Virus record (IMG/VR): IMGVR_UViG_2711768066_000009
Location: 1 to 17,462 of that record
Strand: one strand, 5' to 3'
DNA: 17,462 bases
Source of the DNA: a virus
Taxonomy: Duplodnaviria > Heunggongvirae > Uroviricota > Caudoviricetes
This document shows positions 1,219 through 16,613 of this stretch, in pieces (the first letter of the stretch is position 1; every line of letters starts with the position of its first letter). Below the pieces are notes generated by a model that saw only the letters and a list, made by a program, of their open reading frames with translations, had not been told where the DNA came from and made no database searches. A program made the position numbers and the translations under genes.

Positions 1219-1250
1219 TTGAAAACCCGCCTTTAGGCGGGTTTTTTATT
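1219..1250. terminator. bidirectional rho-independent terminator between convergent transcription units
   Basis: AAAACCCGCC-TTTA-GGCGGGTTTT perfect 10-bp stem, flanked by A-run upstream and T-run downstream; sits between the stop of the 57-aa ORF (+) and the stop of the minus-strand gene at 1250. Confidence 0.75.
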
Positions 1251-2949: not shown

Positions 2950-3311
2950 TATGCTCCAGCCTCCAGTGCTTTTGGCATTACTGCCCAGTGAGTGATGTTG
3001 ACGTTTTCAAGGTCCCCGACCTGAAATGTCCACTGCCATTCTCCGGTTTCTTTTTGCCCCCATGTATACCAGAGAGAACGCCAGCCAATCAGCCAGCCTT
3101 CTCCATTAGCATCAAATAACAGAACACTTTCATTCGCTGGCGGCAGTTCAGCTGACACTGGTATTACTTTGTTTTCCAGTGCTGCACATTTAGCTTCAAG
3201 CGCATCAAATTTACGCACCAGGTATTCAGCATCCGTTTCATTCACTTTCAGATCTCGCGGTACACATTTCCCGCGAAGAAATCCTTCCATTTCGAAAACA
3301 TTCATGCGCAT
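2949..3311 (-). CDS. DUF551-like phage protein (YfdS-like)
   Basis: 120-aa ORF; Trp-rich C-terminal region (GWLIGWRSLWYTWGQKETGEWQW) typical of DUF551-type prophage proteins; overlaps flanking genes. Confidence 0.55.
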   Translation of the reverse strand: MRMNVFEMEGFLRGKCVPRDLKVNETDAEYLVRKFDALEAKCAALENKVIPVSAELPPANESVLLFDANGEGWLIGWRSLWYTWGQKETGEWQWTFQVGDLENVNITHWAVMPKALEAGA

Positions 3312-3965: not shown

Positions 3966-4790
3966 TCAGGCGGTGAAAGTACCAATAAAGGTTTCTACTT
4001 TGCTGTCTTTGAATTTCTCAACAAGCAGATCACGAAATTCGTTAGCCATTTCTTCCTGCACCGCTTCCAGCTGAATAATGCGCAGAACCAGTACAGGACG
4101 ATCGCCAGTGATAATGCTGAGGCGTAATTTAAACGGACGTTCTTTCAGACCTTCAAACGGAACGCATTTAAATTCAAATGCCACTGGCATAATGTCTTTG
4201 GTCTTCGCTTCGACAGACTCCATCAGGGAGCGTTTGCCGCTGAAGTCATTGTCTTCAAAATCAGCGGTCTGGTTCGCTTCAATTGTGATTTTACGGATCG
4301 CCGCAGCCGCTTTGGTTGCCTGAATGGCGTCACCATTAGCATCAAAGCCCACAAGGTAGTCGGCCCAGTCTTCAATCCATTCTGCCAGTGACTTCTGGGA
4401 GTTACGCTCGCCATTAACAGACAACAGAGCAGAGAACGGTGCTGTCTTTTTCAGTTTGAGAGTGGCGGTGTTATCTGCGTGACCTGGTTCATCAATAGTA
4501 CCCAGGTTAAGCACACTGACGGCTCGCATATTATCGGCATCGATAAAGCAGCGGGTGCCTTCATCTGCAAGATCTTTAGAATAACGGGTAAAGTCATCGA
4601 TGCTGGCAGTGGAAAGTGAACCACGGAAACGGAAACGATTTAAATTAAATTTTTCCAGATCACGAATGCGGAAATTCTCAGGCAATGCCACAGCATCGGC
4701 ACCAATCTTACTGATAATTTCATTAACACCCTGAGCAGAAATAAGGGCATGGATTTGATTAATTGCGGTTGCGTCTAAGTACTGAGACAT
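3966..4790 (-). CDS. yfdQ: DUF2303-family prophage protein (YfdQ-like)
   Basis: 274-aa ORF, GAGGA RBS 6 nt upstream of ATG. Length and sequence resemble K-12 CPS-53 YfdQ as I recall; function unknown. Confidence 0.6.
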
Positions 4791-7444: not shown

Positions 7445-8277
7445 ACAGTTTAACGGCAAATAACCGTTTGTCGCAACAGCTGGTGGTCAGTGTCGCTGAA
7501 CACCTGTTGTTACGGCATGAATGCAGATTACCAAATCACCTGGCTGTAAGTAACCACAGAGAACTTTACCTGACTGTGGGGGGCGAGTTGTGCAGGAACT
7601 TAACCGCTGGTTTCGTGACGGAAGAGGACTTTATGTTCATGTTATTCGTTGGGAGCCAGAAACACAGCGCGTTATCTATCTTCGCAAAGACTACCCGCAT
7701 GAGTGCTTTAGTCCTTTGTGGAAATTCAGGCGTGATTTTGTTGAGTGTGAAGGACCACCAGCACATTGATTCTGCCATTCCGGGACGTTACACTGTTCAG
7801 GCACCTTATAAAGCGGGTGTCGGGATTGGCGTCCTGGAATTCAATATAGAGCATAACCGCGCTCATGCGGTTTTTTCGTATCATGAGCATTGCTACGTCC
7901 AAATTATGGTGGGGCGTGCAGGGGCATCGCAAGATGCGCCGGGTTCTATGTTGACCGGTTACGCCAACCCTGTACGTCTCACCACCTCTGTGATTGGCGT
8001 CCCATGTGGTGAGTTCTTTGAATTCAACATAGGGGCTGTCACCATGACTACTCTCCCAACCCTCGCTCGTCTGAATGATGAAGACTTACATAAACTCAGT
8101 TATGTAACAACTGCACTACGTGCTCTGCGCAAGGTAACTCTTTCGGATCCGCAGGCGCATCAGGTTCTGGTAGAAACACTTCTTAACTTGCAGGCTGAAC
8201 GTATTCGTTTGGCGGATAAGGCTAATTTTCATATTCACCGTCTCCTGAATATCAGCGGAGGGCATCGTCATGCTTAA
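7441..8277 (+). CDS. hypothetical protein (278 aa), unknown function
   Basis: Sole long ORF in this interval; ATGA overlap with the upstream gene, and its stop overlaps the ATG of the next ORF; no recognisable motifs. Confidence 0.6.
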   Translation: MNSLTANNRLSQQLVVSVAEHLLLRHECRLPNHLAVSNHRELYLTVGGELCRNLTAGFVTEEDFMFMLFVGSQKHSALSIFAKTTRMSALVLCGNSGVILLSVKDHQHIDSAIPGRYTVQAPYKAGVGIGVLEFNIEHNRAHAVFSYHEHCYVQIMVGRAGASQDAPGSMLTGYANPVRLTTSVIGVPCGEFFEFNIGAVTMTTLPTLARLNDEDLHKLSYVTTALRALRKVTLSDPQAHQVLVETLLNLQAERIRLADKANFHIHRLLNISGGHRHA

Positions 8278-11608: not shown

Positions 11609-12604
11609 GTGACCGTGAGAGCACTACTGACCCCTGAAATTGCCCCGCGTATGGGGATCGTATTGTTCAGGCCAGGTTCAGAGCTGATGCCCCTGTTTAT
11701 GCAGGGGCGTGTCCTGCTGGAGCCTGAGCCGGAGCGTTATTCATCTTTCGCCAGTGGTGCCGTTCCGGCGGCATCACAACCGCTGGCGGATGATCCTGCC
11801 GTTCGGGCCGTGTTCCGCAATGAGGCAGTGATCCGTCGTGCTGGTGGCGTGGAATGTCTTGAAAGCTGGTTACTTCGTGAAAAAGGCTGCCAGTGGCCTC
11901 ATTCCGACTGGCACAGCGAGAACATGACCACAATGCGACACGCTCCGGGTGCAATCCGTCTGTGCTGGCACTGCGATAACCAGCTGCGCGATCAGTTCAC
12001 GGAACGGCTGGAATCAATGGCAACGGATAACTGTGCCCGCTGGGTGTTGTCTGTTGTGCGTCGGGATCTCGGTTTTGATGACAGTCACGTTGTGACAATG
12101 CCGGAACTGTGCTGGTGGCTGATTCGTAATGATCTGGCGGATGCCTTACCGGAAAGTGCAGCCCGTAAGGCACTGAGATTACCGAAGCCTGTTGTGCCGT
12201 CTGTTACCCGGGAAAGTGACCTTGTGCCTTCGGTTCCTGCCACCAGCATCATTCAGGATAAGGCGAAAAAGGTGCTGGCGCTGAAAGTGGATCCGGAGTC
12301 GCCGGAGTCTTTTATGTTACGCCCAAAACGTCGCCGCTGGGTTAATGAAAAGTACACGCGCTGGGTTAAGACACAGCCGTGTGCATGTTGTGGAAAGCCC
12401 GCTGATGATCCCCACCACCTGATAGGTCACGGTCAGGGTGGAATGGGAACAAAAGCGCATGACCTTTTTGTGTTGCCTTTGTGCAGAAAGCATCACGACG
12501 AGCTGCATGCGGATACCGTGGCATTTGAAGAGAAGTATGGCTCCCAGCTGGAGCTGATATTTCGTTTTATCGATCGTGCGCTGGCAATTGGCGTGCTGGC
12601 CTGA
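11609..12604 (+). CDS. DUF968-family protein with Cys/His-rich C-terminal putative His-Me finger nuclease motif
   Basis: 331 aa (GTG start); C-terminal CACCGKPADDPHHLIGHGQGG...CRKHHDELH typical of DUF968 proteins in lambdoid NinR-type regions. Confidence 0.7.
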   Translation: MTVRALLTPEIAPRMGIVLFRPGSELMPLFMQGRVLLEPEPERYSSFASGAVPAASQPLADDPAVRAVFRNEAVIRRAGGVECLESWLLREKGCQWPHSDWHSENMTTMRHAPGAIRLCWHCDNQLRDQFTERLESMATDNCARWVLSVVRRDLGFDDSHVVTMPELCWWLIRNDLADALPESAARKALRLPKPVVPSVTRESDLVPSVPATSIIQDKAKKVLALKVDPESPESFMLRPKRRRWVNEKYTRWVKTQPCACCGKPADDPHHLIGHGQGGMGTKAHDLFVLPLCRKHHDELHADTVAFEEKYGSQLELIFRFIDRALAIGVLA

Positions 12605-12621
12605 TTTTGTGGAGAAAGTTG

Positions 12622-12993
12622 ATGCGTGATATTCAAATGGTTCTTGAACGTTGGGGGGCATGGGTGGCAAATAATCACGAGGATGTGGAATGGTCATCTG
12701 TTGCTGCAGGTTTTAAGGGATTAATTCCTTCGAAAGTAAAATCCCGCCCGCAATGTAGCGATGACGATGGCCTGATCATTAGCTCTGCGATGACAGTTCT
12801 TAAGAAAAAGGAACCGTATCAATACGAATTACTGGAAATGTATTATGTGTATGGGGTTACATTACGGGCGTTGGGGGTAAAACTGGGGATATCACTTAAT
12901 CAGGTTGTTATCAGACTGCAGAAAGCTGAAGGGTTTATTGACGGTTGTCTGGCAATGTTGGGGGTATCTTTAGAAATTGATTGTTACATATAG
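12622..12993 (+). CDS. Q: Q-like late-gene antiterminator
   Basis: Start at ATG 12622 (GGAG upstream; MRDIQMVLERWGAWVANNHEDV...); resembles phage-21/82-type Q (QuuD-like) proteins as I recall; positioned just before the late region. Confidence 0.75.
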   Translation: MRDIQMVLERWGAWVANNHEDVEWSSVAAGFKGLIPSKVKSRPQCSDDDGLIISSAMTVLKKKEPYQYELLEMYYVYGVTLRALGVKLGISLNQVVIRLQKAEGFIDGCLAMLGVSLEIDCYI

Positions 12994-13030
12994 TAATAAA
13001 TTCAATCAAAGTAAATAATCATATTTTATT

Positions 13031-13067
13031 ATAACCTCCTGATGATACCTGTTCATCGGGAGGTTAT
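13031..13067 (+). promoter_or_regulatory. 15-bp stem-loop sequestering the ribosome-binding site of the downstream moron gene
   Basis: ATAACCTCCTGATGA (13031-13045) pairs with TCATCGGGAGGTTAT (13053-13067), one G-U pair, 7-nt loop; the 3' arm contains GGGAGG and ends 1 nt before the ATG at 13069. Confidence 0.5.
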
Positions 13068-13068
13068 T

Positions 13069-13686
13069 ATGGATAAAAATGTAGAGCATGTATTAGTTGA
13101 TGCAATTGAAAATAAGCAATCTTTAACAGTCGTTTACTTAGGAGGGAGCCAGCCCGGAACATTAAGGAATATTTCTCCGATTAGTATAAATGGGGATAAA
13201 TTGCGGGCAAGATGCCATAGTTCTGGAGCAGTAAAGGTTTTCAATCTTGGGAAAATACAGTTACCCAGTGACTCCTGCGCGGTATCTATGCACTATGGAG
13301 ATTTAGAAGTTAAAGCTTATGAGACGATGCAGAGCGTAAATGACAACTTTCATGCCCTTTATCCTGAAGGACGATGGGGTGTTGATTTTAATGAGCATCG
13401 CTTTGCTTTATTTGATTTTTTTAAAAACGGGAAACGAAAAAAAACGGCATTTATGGCAATTGAGTTCAGGGAAAGAGATGAAGAGAAAATAATAACAGGT
13501 GTAACAATTGATATTGGTATATCTGGAACAGTGATTTCTGAGAAGTCCCGAATCCCAAAAAGACGACCATGGGTAGTGGTTGGTCCCGAACACGGAGAAT
13601 ACAGTACTTATTCAACTTTGGACAAGGCTGCTACAGCGTTTTTTGAGAGGCTTTCGTTGATAGCATCCGGCCTGGAAGATAATTGA
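13069..13686 (+). CDS. hypothetical moron protein (205 aa), possible N-terminal WYL-like beta-barrel; function unknown
   Basis: Start at ATG 13069 behind GGGAGG; strongly AT-rich coding sequence unlike the flanking phage backbone; N-terminal segment SLTVVYLGGSQPGTLRNISPISINGDKLRARCHSSGAVKVFNLGKIQ loosely resembles a WYL-type domain (low confidence). Confidence 0.55.
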   Translation: MDKNVEHVLVDAIENKQSLTVVYLGGSQPGTLRNISPISINGDKLRARCHSSGAVKVFNLGKIQLPSDSCAVSMHYGDLEVKAYETMQSVNDNFHALYPEGRWGVDFNEHRFALFDFFKNGKRKKTAFMAIEFRERDEEKIITGVTIDIGISGTVISEKSRIPKRRPWVVVGPEHGEYSTYSTLDKAATAFFERLSLIASGLEDN

Positions 13687-13816
13687 TTTTATGTTTGGTA
13701 TTCAGAGTTCGCCGTGCTTAAGAAAGTCAAGATTCTAAAAATACTGAATGAGCTACTTGTGTTATAACAAAAATGCTATTAGTGTGTTAAGAGTGGTTAC
13801 TTCGCCACACAACTTA

Positions 13817-13842
13817 AACCCGCCACTGAGCGGGTTTTTTGT
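13817..13842 (+). terminator. rho-independent terminator downstream of the moron
   Basis: AACCCGC-CACTGA-GCGGGTT stem followed by TTTTTT. Confidence 0.7.
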
Positions 13843-13938
13843 ACCTGTAAACTTGGTGCAGTACAGTAAACACGCTGGTGGTCGTGAATACTGACTTTTT
13901 ATCTTGCTGGCTTTTTAGACAAGAGTTATTGGTATGTC

Positions 13939-14166
13939 ATGTTAACAAGAAGGGAAAAAGACATGCTAAAACAGCAAGATATGACAGAAACCGCCGCCGC
14001 AGTCCTTCATTTCTTACCTGCTGACAAGTGGGTAACGCCACGCATGATGACGAGAACTACCGGAGTAAGCGAAGCCCAGTGCCAGTTAATACTGACTCAG
14101 TTAGTTCTGGCGGGTCTGGCGAAGGATAACGGCGGGTACGGGAATAAATTCAGACGCTGCCAGTAA
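13939..14166 (+). CDS. small hypothetical protein, possible winged-HTH
   Basis: 75-aa ORF; segment VTPRMMTRTTGVSEAQCQLILTQLVLAGLA looks HTH-like; start uncertain (in-frame ATGs at 13939 and downstream). Confidence 0.4.
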   Translation: MLTRREKDMLKQQDMTETAAAVLHFLPADKWVTPRMMTRTTGVSEAQCQLILTQLVLAGLAKDNGGYGNKFRRCQ

Positions 14167-14316
14167 TGGCGGTTTCCTGCTGTGAAAATGGGCGGCTGGT
14201 GGGTGTTGGTAGCACCTGCCAGCCATTCGCTCATGCTTACTGGTCACAAGCGAACCACGGCCCACTGCTTTAGCGCAAAAGCAGAGTGAGCCTACCAGAG
14301 TTACGCTTACTGATCC

Positions 14317-15369
14317 ATGAAAAATACTGTAAAAATAAACAGTGTTGATTTAATCAACGCTGATTGCCTGCATTTTATTCAGTCCCTGCCTGATAACTCC
14401 ATTGATCTGATTGTTACCGATCCGCCGTACTTCAAAGTGAAGCCCAACGGCTGGGACAATCAGTGGAAAGGGGACGAAGATTACCTGAAGTGGCTGGACC
14501 ACTGTCTGGCCCAGTTCTGGCGGGTACTGAAACCAGCCGGAAGCCTTTACCTGTTCTGTGGGCATCGCCTGGCATCTGATATTGAGATCATGATGCGTGA
14601 ACGTTTCAACGTGCTTAACCATATCATCTGGGCGAAGCCGTCCGGACGTTGGAATGGGTGTAATAAAGAAAGTCTGCGTGCATATTTTCCTGCCACAGAG
14701 CGCGTTCTGTTTGCTGAACATTACCAGGGGCCATATCGCGGCAAAAGTGACGGCTATGCGGCAAAAGAAAGGGAACTCAAACAGCACATAATGGCACCGC
14801 TGATATCGTATTTCAGGGATGCTCGTGCCGAACTGGGTATAACGGCAAAACAAATTGCCGAAGCCACAGGTAAGAAAAATATGGTTTCCCACTGGTTTGG
14901 TGCCAGTCAGTGGCAGTTGCCGAATGAGGCTGACTATCGGAAGTTACAGGCACTGTTTTCCCGTATAGCGGCAGAGAAGTTTCAGGAACAACAACTGGAA
15001 CAACCACACCACCAGCTGGTGGCATCTTATGATTCACTGAATCGTAAATATTCTGAATTGCTGGATGAGTTTAAATCTCTCCGGCGCTATTTCTCCGTAT
15101 CAGTCTCCGTGCCTTATACCGATGTCTGGATGCATAAACCCGTTCAGTTCTACCCGGGGAAACATCCGTGTGAGAAACCGGCGGATATGCTCAGGCAAAT
15201 AATCAATGCCAGTAGTCGACCAGGTGATCTGGTTGCTGATTTTTTTATGGGATCCGGTTCCACAATAAAAGCAGCAATGGCGCTGGGGCGTCGGGCCTTA
15301 GGTGTTGAGCTTGAGTCAGAGCGGTTTAATCAGACAGTGAAAGAGATAAACGAGCTGGTGGGGAAATAA
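14317..15369 (+). CDS. DNA methyltransferase, beta-class amino-MTase (N6-adenine or N4-cytosine)
   Basis: 350 aa; DPPY motif near the N-terminus (LIVTDPPYF) and AdoMet-binding motif near the C-terminus ([13 protein letters not shown]); this motif order is typical of beta-class MTases. No adjacent restriction endonuclease gene. Confidence 0.8.
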
Positions 15370-15436
15370 TCTGGTGGCCACGTCAGGTGGCCTTTTTATT
15401 TCCATTACACAGCACCCGCATCTGCGAGGTGGGGTT

Positions 15437-15652
15437 ATGAAATCCATGGATAAGTTAACAACGGGTGTCGCCTATGGCACCTCAGCAGGTAGTGCCGGTT
15501 ACTGGTTTTTACAGCTGCTCGATAAAGTCACGCCCTCACAGTGGGCAGCAATAGGTGTGCTGGGTAGCCTGGTATTTGGCCTGCTGACGTACCTGACAAA
15601 CCTTTATTTCAAGATTAAAGAAGATAAGCGCAAGGCTGCGAGAGGTGAATAA
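15437..15652 (+). CDS. S: class II holin (phage 21 S21-type pinholin) with dual-start motif
   Basis: MKSMDKL... gives two in-frame starts (ATG 15437 and ATG 15446), as for S21 antiholin/holin; the remainder closely matches S21 as I remember it. Confidence 0.85.
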
Positions 15653-16149
15653 TGCCTCCATCATTACGAAAAGCAGTTGCTGCTGCTATTGGTGGCGGAG
15701 CAATTGCTATAGCATCAGTGTTAATCACTGGCCCAAGTGGTGACGATGGCCTGGAAGGTGTCAGCTACATACCATACAAAGATATCGTTGGCGTATGGAC
15801 TGTATGTCACGGACACACCGGAAAAGACATCATGCTCGGTAAAACGTATACCGAAGCAGAATGCAAAGCCCTCCTGAATAAAGACCTTGCCACGGTTGCC
15901 AGACAAATTAACCCGTACATCAAAGTCGATATACCGGAAACAACGCGCGGCGCTCTTTACTCGTTCGTCTACAACGTGGGTGCTGGCAATTTCAGAACAT
16001 CGACGCTTCTTCGCAAAATAAACCAGGGCGATATCAAAGGCGCATGTGACCAGCTACGTCGCTGGATATACGCTGGCGGTAAGCAATGGAAAGGCCTGAT
16101 GACTCGTCGTGAGATTGAGCGTGAAGTCTGTTTGTGGGGGCAACAATGA
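15652..16149 (+). CDS. R: SAR endolysin (phage 21 R21-type lysozyme)
   Basis: 165 aa; N-terminal Gly/Ala-rich signal-anchor-release segment ([20 protein letters not shown]) followed by a lysozyme domain; overlaps holin stop and Rz start. Confidence 0.9.
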
Positions 16150-16613
16150 GCAGAGTAACCGCGATTATCTCCGCTCTGGTTATCTGCATCATCGTCTGCC
16201 TGTCGTGGGCGGTCAATCATTACCGTGATAACGCCATCGCCTACAAAGAACAGCGAGATAAAAAAGTCAGTGAGCTGAAGCAGGCGACCGCCACCATTAC
16301 TGACATGCAGCAGCGCCAGCGTTCTGCTGATGCACTCGATGCTAAATACACGAAGGAGTTAGCTGATGCGAAAGCTGAAAATGATGCTCTTCGGCGCAAG
16401 CTTGATAATGGTGGGCGGGTGTTCGTCAAAGGAAAATGCCCTGTGCCATCCTCAGCCGAAACCTCCAGCGCCTCCGGCATGGGCAATGATGCCACCGTCG
16501 AACTCTCTCCAGTTGCTGGACGAAACGTTCTCGGTATCCGGGACGGAATTATCCGCGACCAAACAGCACTGAGAACGCTTCAGGAATACATCAGGACGCA
16601 ATGCCTTCGATGA
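16146..16613 (+). CDS. Rz: Rz i-spanin
   Basis: Start at ATG 16146 (ATGA overlap with endolysin); N-terminal TM segment plus coiled-coil-like region; closely resembles lambda Rz. Confidence 0.85.
16366..16572 (+). CDS. Rz1: Rz1 o-spanin lipoprotein, embedded in Rz in the +1 frame
   Basis: Lipobox LIMVGGC followed by Pro-rich segment [11 protein letters not shown]; entirely within Rz, as in lambda. Confidence 0.8.

Follow-up and report, generated by a model that had tools for sequence, protein, structure and literature searches.

Among the described late-control cassettes of lambdoid phages, that of phage 21 consists of the antiterminator Q21, the late promoter PR'21, a Q binding element (QBE), a sigma-dependent pause element and the terminator tR'21 (PMID 1704887; PMC6606751; bioRxiv 10.1101/651190; record OL657228). 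The curated phage 21 record used here (L129) places the −35 of PR' at 2939-2944, the QBE at 2947-2962, the −10 at 2962-2967, the start at 2974, the pause element at 2975-2981 and the terminator at 2976-3023 (+3 to +50); the terminated RNA is about 46-50 nt long. For the Stx2a prophage Sp5 of Escherichia coli O157 Sakai, the PR' start has been mapped to 1,266,203 by differential RNA sequencing (dRNA-seq) and the 3' end at tR' to 1,266,460 by Term-seq (Sy et al. 2020, PMC7547250). The PR'-6S-tR' unit of lambda combines a constitutive promoter, a short terminated RNA (194 nt) and Q-dependent read-through into the lysis genes.

Here we analyse a stretch of 17,462 nt from the IMG/VR virus record IMGVR_UViG_2711768066_000009 (the window). 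The window represents the late-control region of a lambdoid prophage of E. coli, and in the stretches compared many chromosomes of the species match it at 98-100% identity. The subject is the interval 13687-13842, which an initial annotation had described as one non-coding unit of about 130 nt. It is not a single unit: it has two parts, the tail of an upstream gene (13687-13756) and a late-control cassette (13757-13842) that matches those of lambdoid phages of the Q21/Q933W type. Comparison of sequences makes it probable that 13757-13842 comprises the late promoter PR', a Q-loading region and the first terminator, of the Q21/Q933W family. The finding is another case of a well-known switch – the standard lambdoid late switch that is overridden by Q to start lysis. 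The features concerned are as follows.

12607 to 12993, plus strand: gene for the Q antiterminator (128 aa), a short member of the Q21/Q933W family that has no Q21-type L3 loop (Pfam, structure match)
13069 to 13686, plus strand: inserted gene between Q and PR', 205 aa, phrog_8498 (function not assigned), weak WYL match
13687 to 13756, plus strand: lineage-specific non-coding tail (3' untranslated region, UTR, of the inserted gene), co-occurring only with that gene
13757 to 13762, plus strand: −35 hexamer TTGTGT, overlapped by the near-palindrome
13757 to 13772, no strand assigned: near-palindrome TTGTGTTATAACAAAA, core TGTTATAACA (13760-13769), positions −35 to −20; candidate Q binding element, from the association of its class with Q
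13780 to 13785, plus strand: −10 hexamer TAGTGT, positions −12 to −7, identified from family-invariant positions
13792, plus strand: predicted PR' transcription start, an A, homologous to the mapped start of Sakai Sp5 (position 346 of locus L008)
13793 to 13808, plus strand: initial transcribed region with 5' hairpin GUGGU-UACUUC-GCCAC (+2 to +17), from its fold; single copy in the window
13798 to 13803, plus strand: candidate sigma-dependent pause element TACTTC, −10-like, +7 to +12, from sequence resemblance
13816 to 13842, plus strand: intrinsic terminator of tR' type, stem 13816-13823 / 13830-13837, loop CACUGA, T-run 13835-13840 (scan, fold, conservation)

The predicted promoter and its terminated leader

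The main likeness is to the PR' of the Stx phages 933W and Sakai Sp5 and Sp15. Positions 13785-13845 (−6 to about +55) are about 81% identical to the sequence just 3' of the Q stop in Sp5; the match takes in the start, the 5' hairpin and the hairpin-U tract, and the Qs belong to the same family. To bring the Sp5 coordinates onto the current record we shifted them by +142, a value based on the old Sakai gene coordinates. This offset puts the Term-seq 3' end on the last T of the tR' T-run. Independently of the offset, the lone GUAUU in the 258-nt Sp5 transcript has its U at +173, which is the published RNase E cut (PMC7547250). The mapped Sp5 start is the bracketed A in TAAG[A]GTGGTTAC, and its equivalent in the window is A13792; the window thus has a sigma-70 promoter – a predicted one, with only 6 of 12 consensus positions in its hexamers – whose start aligns with a mapped PR' start. 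Upstream of the start the two loci differ: the Sp5 operator is TTTACGATCGTAAA against TGTTATAACA in the window, and Q lies 22 nt from the start in Sp5.

A scan of IMG/VR for AAGAGTGGTTACNTNGCCAC gave at least 120 loci (at least 125 with loci from elsewhere; all locus counts refer to the matches listed). A Q21-family gene is found on the same strand no more than 3.1 kb upstream in 106 of 125 loci, most of the others having too little upstream sequence. Counted from the mapped start, 57 distinct family sequences have T−12 in 52 cases, A−11 and T−7 in all 57, G−6 in 56 and AAG at −3 to −1 in 57, with an A5 tract at −23 to −19. The window carries every one of these: T−12, A−11, T−7, G−6, AAG and the A5 tract. 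By their sequence, the invariant positions mark a sigma-70 −10 element correctly spaced from the start. The spacer between −35 and −10 is 17 bp, the −10 (TAGTGT) matches consensus at three of six positions, and the family leader motif occurs once in the window. The initial annotation had proposed promoter prediction as a check: homology places a promoter inside the interval (13757-13785), whereas the promoter scan did not list it, because its hexamers agree with consensus at only 6 of 12 positions.

Two other placements were rejected. An extended −10 (TGtTATAAC, 13760-13768), considered as a separate promoter, coincides with the class-specific palindrome, and the invariant positions put the −10 at 13780-13785. 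A PR' directly 3' of Q (12994-13068) fails because that segment has no sequence shared with relatives and no family motif, only a 15-bp hairpin over a ribosome-binding site.

A Q gene of the Q21 family (PF06530) lies upstream of the cassette on the same strand. The window Q matches PF06530 at 5.2e-48 and the Q21 structures 6P18 and 6JNX at E = 2.6e-10; its helix-turn-helix (HTH) region has no L3 loop and carries a class-specific recognition helix, SLNQVVIRLQKA. The cassette lies 799 bp from the Q stop because the inserted gene (13069-13686) lies between Q and PR'. Whereas the initial annotation implied a moron downstream of the late promoter, this gene is 5' of PR'. Such displacement is the majority state: among the 106 loci, the distance from Q stop to start is 10-45 nt in 30 and 0.5-3 kb, with genes in between, in 76. 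In cdtI a bidirectional terminator lies directly 3' of Q, and in both cdtI and PhiR40_1 minus-strand genes occupy the gap between Q and PR'; PR' cannot adjoin Q in these phages because that position is taken.

The terminator has the sequence AAACCCGC-CACUGA-GCGGGUUU followed by UUUG, with an 8-bp stem and U6, and it lies between the promoter and the late genes. A strict scan (at least 7 Watson-Crick pairs, at least 4 of them G-C, a loop of 3-8 and a T-run) found three sites in the window, this one among them, against 0.035 per dinucleotide-shuffled window. The built-in terminator scan of the window did not list 13816-13842, probably because extension of the stem consumes the T-run. Its sequence occurs once in the window and carries a terminator annotation in phage Ayreon; in the phage collection, the block found in the largest number of records begins at it (13817). 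All 56 distinct leader variants listed have a G+C-rich hairpin and then a U-run some 25-60 nt 3' of the start, including variants with unrelated stems (CCUCGC/GCGGGG, CCCAC/GUGGG, CCCUGCC/GGCGGGG). In a representative alignment 95.7% of cells are paired and two stem pairs show double changes; none of 500 shuffles reaches the observed pairing or covariation score. The strong terminator that the initial annotation saw closing the interval is thus confirmed by strict scan and by conservation. As a separate observation, another strict intrinsic terminator, AAAACCCGCCTTTAGGCGGGTTTTTT, lies at 1222-1248 (plus strand), and its stem resembles that of 13816-13842.

The 50-nt RNA 13792-13841 folds at −18.3 kcal/mol (z = −3.9), with the 5' hairpin at +2 to +17 and the terminator hairpin at +25 to +46. 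The predicted terminated RNA (13792-13840) is 49 nt long and consists of the 5' hairpin, a C/A-rich linker and the terminator hairpin. Of the suggestion that the interval yields a short, Q-antiterminated late-promoter transcript, the PR'-tR'-like unit stands and the length does not: the predicted RNA is like that of phage 21, not one of about 130 nt, and the proposed likeness to lambda 6S RNA fails in length. The suggestion of a long 3' UTR holds for 13687-13756 and not for the remainder; transcripts of Q and of the inserted gene probably also stop at 13816-13842.

Comparison with phage 21 gives further likenesses. The Qs share a structural family, a protein-specific element is embedded in the promoter (a candidate in the window), and a holin and lysozyme of phage 21 type lie downstream. 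There are also differences: the Qs are distant (43.5 bits) and that of the window lacks the L3 loop; the phage 21 QBE consists of two direct TGAGCA repeats (−27 to −12) as opposed to a near-palindrome (−35 to −20); the leader sequences are unrelated; and PR' is 6 bp from Q in phage 21 against 799 bp here. The lambda unit has the same proposed logic, but its Q belongs to an unrelated family (PF03589) and its QBE and pause element are other ones.

The same cassette is present in the DLP12 prophage of E. coli K-12 (quuD...nmpC::IS5...essD), with palindrome TTTACGTACGTAAA, −10 TATGCT, the same leader and a hairpin-U5. It too is displaced from Q, quuD being 2.9 kb upstream. It differs from the window in its operator class, in having a minus-strand porin as the inserted gene, and in a downstream region without the small open reading frame (ORF) and methylase. 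The DLP12 cassette lies at 4667-4780 of locus L131 (genome about 577,166-577,279), between nmpC and essD, with a predicted start at 577,229, 170 nt before essD; the literature on the essD and quuD promoters gave nothing informative.

The near-palindrome and its association with Q

Upstream of −6 the likeness between the window and other family members is architectural and not one of sequence identity, and upstream of −36 no similarity was found between them. At the same place as the window palindrome (−36 to −24) the other classes have palindromes of their own: TTTACGATCGTAAA, GCGTACGC, GCGGTCCGC and TGGAATTCCA. When the Q proteins were clustered at 80% identity, ten clusters were obtained, and each corresponds to exactly one operator class. 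Adjusted mutual information (AMI) with Q cluster is 0.88 for −42 to −19, 0.73 for −18 to −1, 0.57 for −120 to −60 and 0.35-0.43 from +22 on, where downstream modules are shuffled among Q clusters; by position, the association is maximal at −36 to −27. In the Q HTH, the second helix has a class-specific sequence and tracks the operator class even across different Q clusters, and the pairing of operator class with Q persists where 0.5-3 kb of inserted genes lie in between. We read the palindrome as a candidate Q binding element. The association has a caveat: Q and PR' lie near each other and are in part inherited together.

Support for the pairing is at the level of the family, not independent for the window allele, because the window operator class is a single lineage: at least 12 loci and 52 genomes belong to it, and every one of them has this inserted gene at a spacing of 799 bp.

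Tentatively, and as a possibility that we place a little below an even chance, these data can be joined in a reading with three parts. First, short Qs like QuuD and Q933W may recognise a near-palindrome overlapping the −35, unlike Q21, which recognises direct repeats between −35 and −10. Second, there would be at least five specificity classes, of which the window pair (TGTTATAACA with helix SLNQVVIRLQKA) would be an uncharacterised one. Third, accessory genes would have one of their major insertion sites in the gap between Q and PR' (76 of the 106 loci), in addition to the region 3' of PR'. If this is true, then genes in that gap, such as the 205-aa gene of the window and nmpC of DLP12, escape control by Q and follow a schedule different from that of morons in the late operon. 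The window pair could also be used for swaps of Q specificity.

On the protein side, the 18-residue L3 loop by which Q21 enters the DNA minor groove is absent from the short Qs (those of the window, L003, L004, L018, L035, L061, L113 and others).

Competing readings of the interval

Several points weigh against 13757-13842 being an active, Q-controlled late promoter and terminator. Its hexamers fit the sigma-70 consensus at only half of the positions, and the literature yielded no transcript data for the window allele. The restriction of the operator class to one lineage counts here too, and the palindrome of that lineage could in principle serve the product of the co-inherited inserted gene instead of Q. 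In phage 21 a direct repeat (−27 to −12) serves as QBE instead of a palindrome (−36 to −24). The pause candidate TACTTC lacks the usual T at its sixth position and is not convincing; across the listed family C and T both occur at +12, and T and A at +10 (TACATT in Sp5, TACTTT in some others), and conservation of the initial transcribed region is partly imposed by the search pattern. The Sp5 hairpin homologous to the terminator (+25 to +52) is read through to give the 258-nt RNA (PMC7547250), which makes the efficiency of the window terminator uncertain. For the DLP12 leader, the Term-seq supplement of PMC7815308 holds no record of a 3' end.

The Sp5 hairpin itself (370-396 of L008) carries a U7, looks like a good terminator and lies inside the published 258-nt precursor of StxS; the searched passages of PMC7547250 contain no discussion of it.

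On a first alternative reading, the interval would be only the 3' UTR and terminator of a transcript of Q and the inserted gene, the PR'-like sequence being an inactive relic, with the late start elsewhere or the prophage defective. The promoter scan's silence and the architectural likeness upstream of −6 would fit a relic, as would a class with one configuration and a hairpin well sited to stop transcription of the inserted gene. A relic would not, however, be expected to keep every family-invariant promoter position intact. The motif is the sole copy in the window and nothing resembling PR' is found at 12994-13068; the arrangement is at least 98.3% identical among the matches listed (52 genomes), with Q and the lysis cassette intact; and displaced arrangements occur in other classes too. 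We regard a relic as unlikely.

A second alternative, compatible with the PR' reading, is that the leader of about 49 nt acts in trans as an Hfq-binding RNA like StxS or the AgvB/AsxR RNAs of EHEC prophages. A single-stranded C/A-rich linker (CACACAACUUAAA) precedes its terminator hairpin, which carries U6; StxS comes from a homologous promoter (PMC7547250); convergent small RNAs (sRNAs) are known from the same part of prophages (PMC4104026), and AgvB sponges GcvB through a CACAACA motif. Against this, the StxS segment, which follows the RNase E site at +173 and runs to tR', has no window equivalent: transcription in Sp5 goes on to a second terminator at +258, its 3' part becoming StxS (PMC7547250), and while Sp5 339-399 was matched in the window nothing was found for 400-603, a segment of about 200 nt. 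No Rfam family was found on the plus strand of the interval, either at gathering threshold (whole window) or at E<=10 (12500-14500), and no Hfq peak (EcOnc) is listed for the first 50 nt of the homologous Sakai leaders. A tRNA scan found none.

The anti-sRNAs AsxR, AgvB, EcOnc03 and EcOnc27 (Tree et al. 2014, PMC4104026) resemble the window element in neighbourhood, from accessory gene to conserved small ORF, and in having intrinsic terminators; the Pas sRNAs (bioRxiv 10.64898/2026.05.13.724894) share the neighbourhood and such terminators. These RNAs lie downstream of PR' and antisense to it, whereas the window element is PR' itself. By BLAST, AsxR, AgvB and EcOnc03 are absent from the window, and the 3' domain of about 42 nt in AsxR/AgvB (RF02703, RF02702; GUAUCUCAUGC..UUGCCCGAACCCAYUCGGGC) matched no more than 9 nt of the window by BLAST and nothing by Rfam at E up to 10. 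A GcvB sponge acting through the CACACAAC linker was rejected: the duplex has −12.9 kcal/mol and 13.6% of shuffles do equally well, so that nothing is seen that exceeds base composition. The independent sRNA of the initial annotation thus finds no support, and a trans-acting role for the leader is, in our judgement, quite improbable.

Very improbable also is that the hairpin ends a minus-strand small RNA that starts near 13890-13945, a convergent partner as in other prophages. What suggests one is a sub-threshold match to STnc130 (RF02084; 13808-13944 minus, 30.1 bits, E = 0.053 for 2 kb), the folding of the minus strand of 13805-13950 (z = −2.8), the near-invariance of 13843-13962 and the convergent sRNA pairs documented in this region of Sakai prophages. 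The STnc130 score is, however, well under the 55-bit gathering threshold, so that the family cannot be assigned; the scan gave no convincing minus-strand promoter; and on this strand no more than UUUAAG comes after the hairpin, both in the window and in most listed variants (the plus strand reads CTTAAACCC before the hairpin).

The earlier statement that no ORF lies between the upstream stop and the terminator holds, in that no credible one is present. The inserted gene stops at 13686, 13687-13816 is non-coding, and the sole ORF of at least 40 aa that touches 13687-13842 is one of 48 aa with an ATG start (13748-13894). That it encodes a small protein can practically be dismissed: although the ORF exists and automated annotation of PhiR40_1 has a 38-aa hypothetical protein at the equivalent place, it has no match in Pfam and crosses the terminator, its frame is broken in close relatives by single-base differences in T-run length (window against L084; cdtI one base shorter), and its 3' half is swapped for different downstream modules.

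The proposed switch and the genes around it

The late genes lie downstream of the cassette on the same strand, the lysis genes among them.

5' of Q, plus strand: KilA-N gene and DUF968 gene (gene order by ORF, annotation and Pfam)
13843 to 13962, plus strand: conserved late-operon leader, common to phages with lambda-type and 21-type Q
13963 to 16613, plus strand: genes under the proposed control of PR' and Q, from the small ORF to Rz (ORF, Pfam, PHROG)
13963 to 14166, plus strand: small conserved ORF, phrog_331, first gene 3' of the leader; a DNA methyltransferase gene is next
15374 to 16613, plus strand: phage 21-type holin (PF04971), lysozyme and Rz (Pfam)
15376 to 15392, plus strand: terminator-like site, GGCCACGTCAGGTGGCC then T5, between the methylase stop and the holin gene

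The following steps are modelled on the phage 21 and lambda paradigms (PMC6606751; bioRxiv 10.1101/651190). Host sigma-70 polymerase would initiate constitutively at A13792. In the lysogen, where Q is lacking, the leader of about 49 nt would be made and released at the U-tract (13835-13840). During lytic growth Q (12607-12993) would bind the near-palindrome at 13757-13772, as Q21 does its element, and load onto polymerase paused in the conserved initial transcribed region (candidate TACTTC, +7 to +12). Q would then block formation of the hairpin, and the modified polymerase would pass both 13816-13842 and 15376-15392 and transcribe the methylase gene and those for holin, lysozyme and Rz. First under PR' would come the small ORF and the DNA methylase. 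Should the PR' hairpin leak, the site at 15376-15392 would shield the lysis genes, and the small ORF and methylase could be expressed in lysogens.

The inserted gene lies 5' of PR' and so would be expressed from the early/Q transcript or from a promoter of its own, not from the Q-antiterminated late operon. Its start (13069) corresponds to the one called by PGAP in strain 219, and its WYL match in Pfam is under the cut-off (16.5 against 21.8 bits). The junction of Q with this gene is present in exactly 52 of 5426 complete E. coli genomes. The query 13600-13960 is matched at least partly in 1463 of these genomes and covered whole in 52. Between the Q stop and the inserted gene there is a strong 15-bp hairpin (13031-13068, plus strand; 12994-13085 folds at −26 kcal/mol, z = −4.7) that covers the GGAGG ribosome-binding site of the gene and ends one base 5' of its ATG. 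This hairpin may act to terminate Q transcripts or to control translation; the promoter scan also called a minus-strand sigma-70 site (10/12) inside it.

Comparison with other phages shows a mosaic. For Ayreon, mEp460 and the Stx2c phages, the part in common with the window begins only at the terminator and is nearly invariant to about 13960; for PhiR40_1 and cdtI, whose Q is of the same short type, it begins at about 13786. The non-coding block 13843-13962 is nearly invariant in five phages. The Q of Ayreon is lambda-type (PF03589) and its PR' is lambda-like (TTGCAT, 17 bp, TAAGAT, with an AACGAT pause motif); this PR' is followed by the identical terminator and two small genes; the terminator then recurs, and this second copy opens the block common to Ayreon and the window. 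Since terminator and leader are common to different Q/PR' cassettes, they form a shared late-operon module whose recombination joint lies just 5' of the hairpin. The leader motif (AAGAGTGGTTAC.T.GCCAC, then the hairpin) is a simple marker for late promoters of this Q family, those of K-12 DLP12 and Stx phages included.

The terminator occurs twice in Ayreon (2324-2347 and 3001-3024 of L001) and in a Stx2c phage (3324-3355 and from 4001 onward of L002), where it flanks small inserted genes 3' of a lambda-type PR'; the doubling looks like insertion by recombination at the terminator.

Elsewhere in the window, isrK (60.1 bits) and C4 antisense RNA (80.1 bits) lie adjacent on the plus strand (7801-7877 and 7902-7989), both above the Rfam gathering threshold. 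Such a pairing is known as the RNA-controlled antirepressor module of P1/P7 and Gifsy-type phages.

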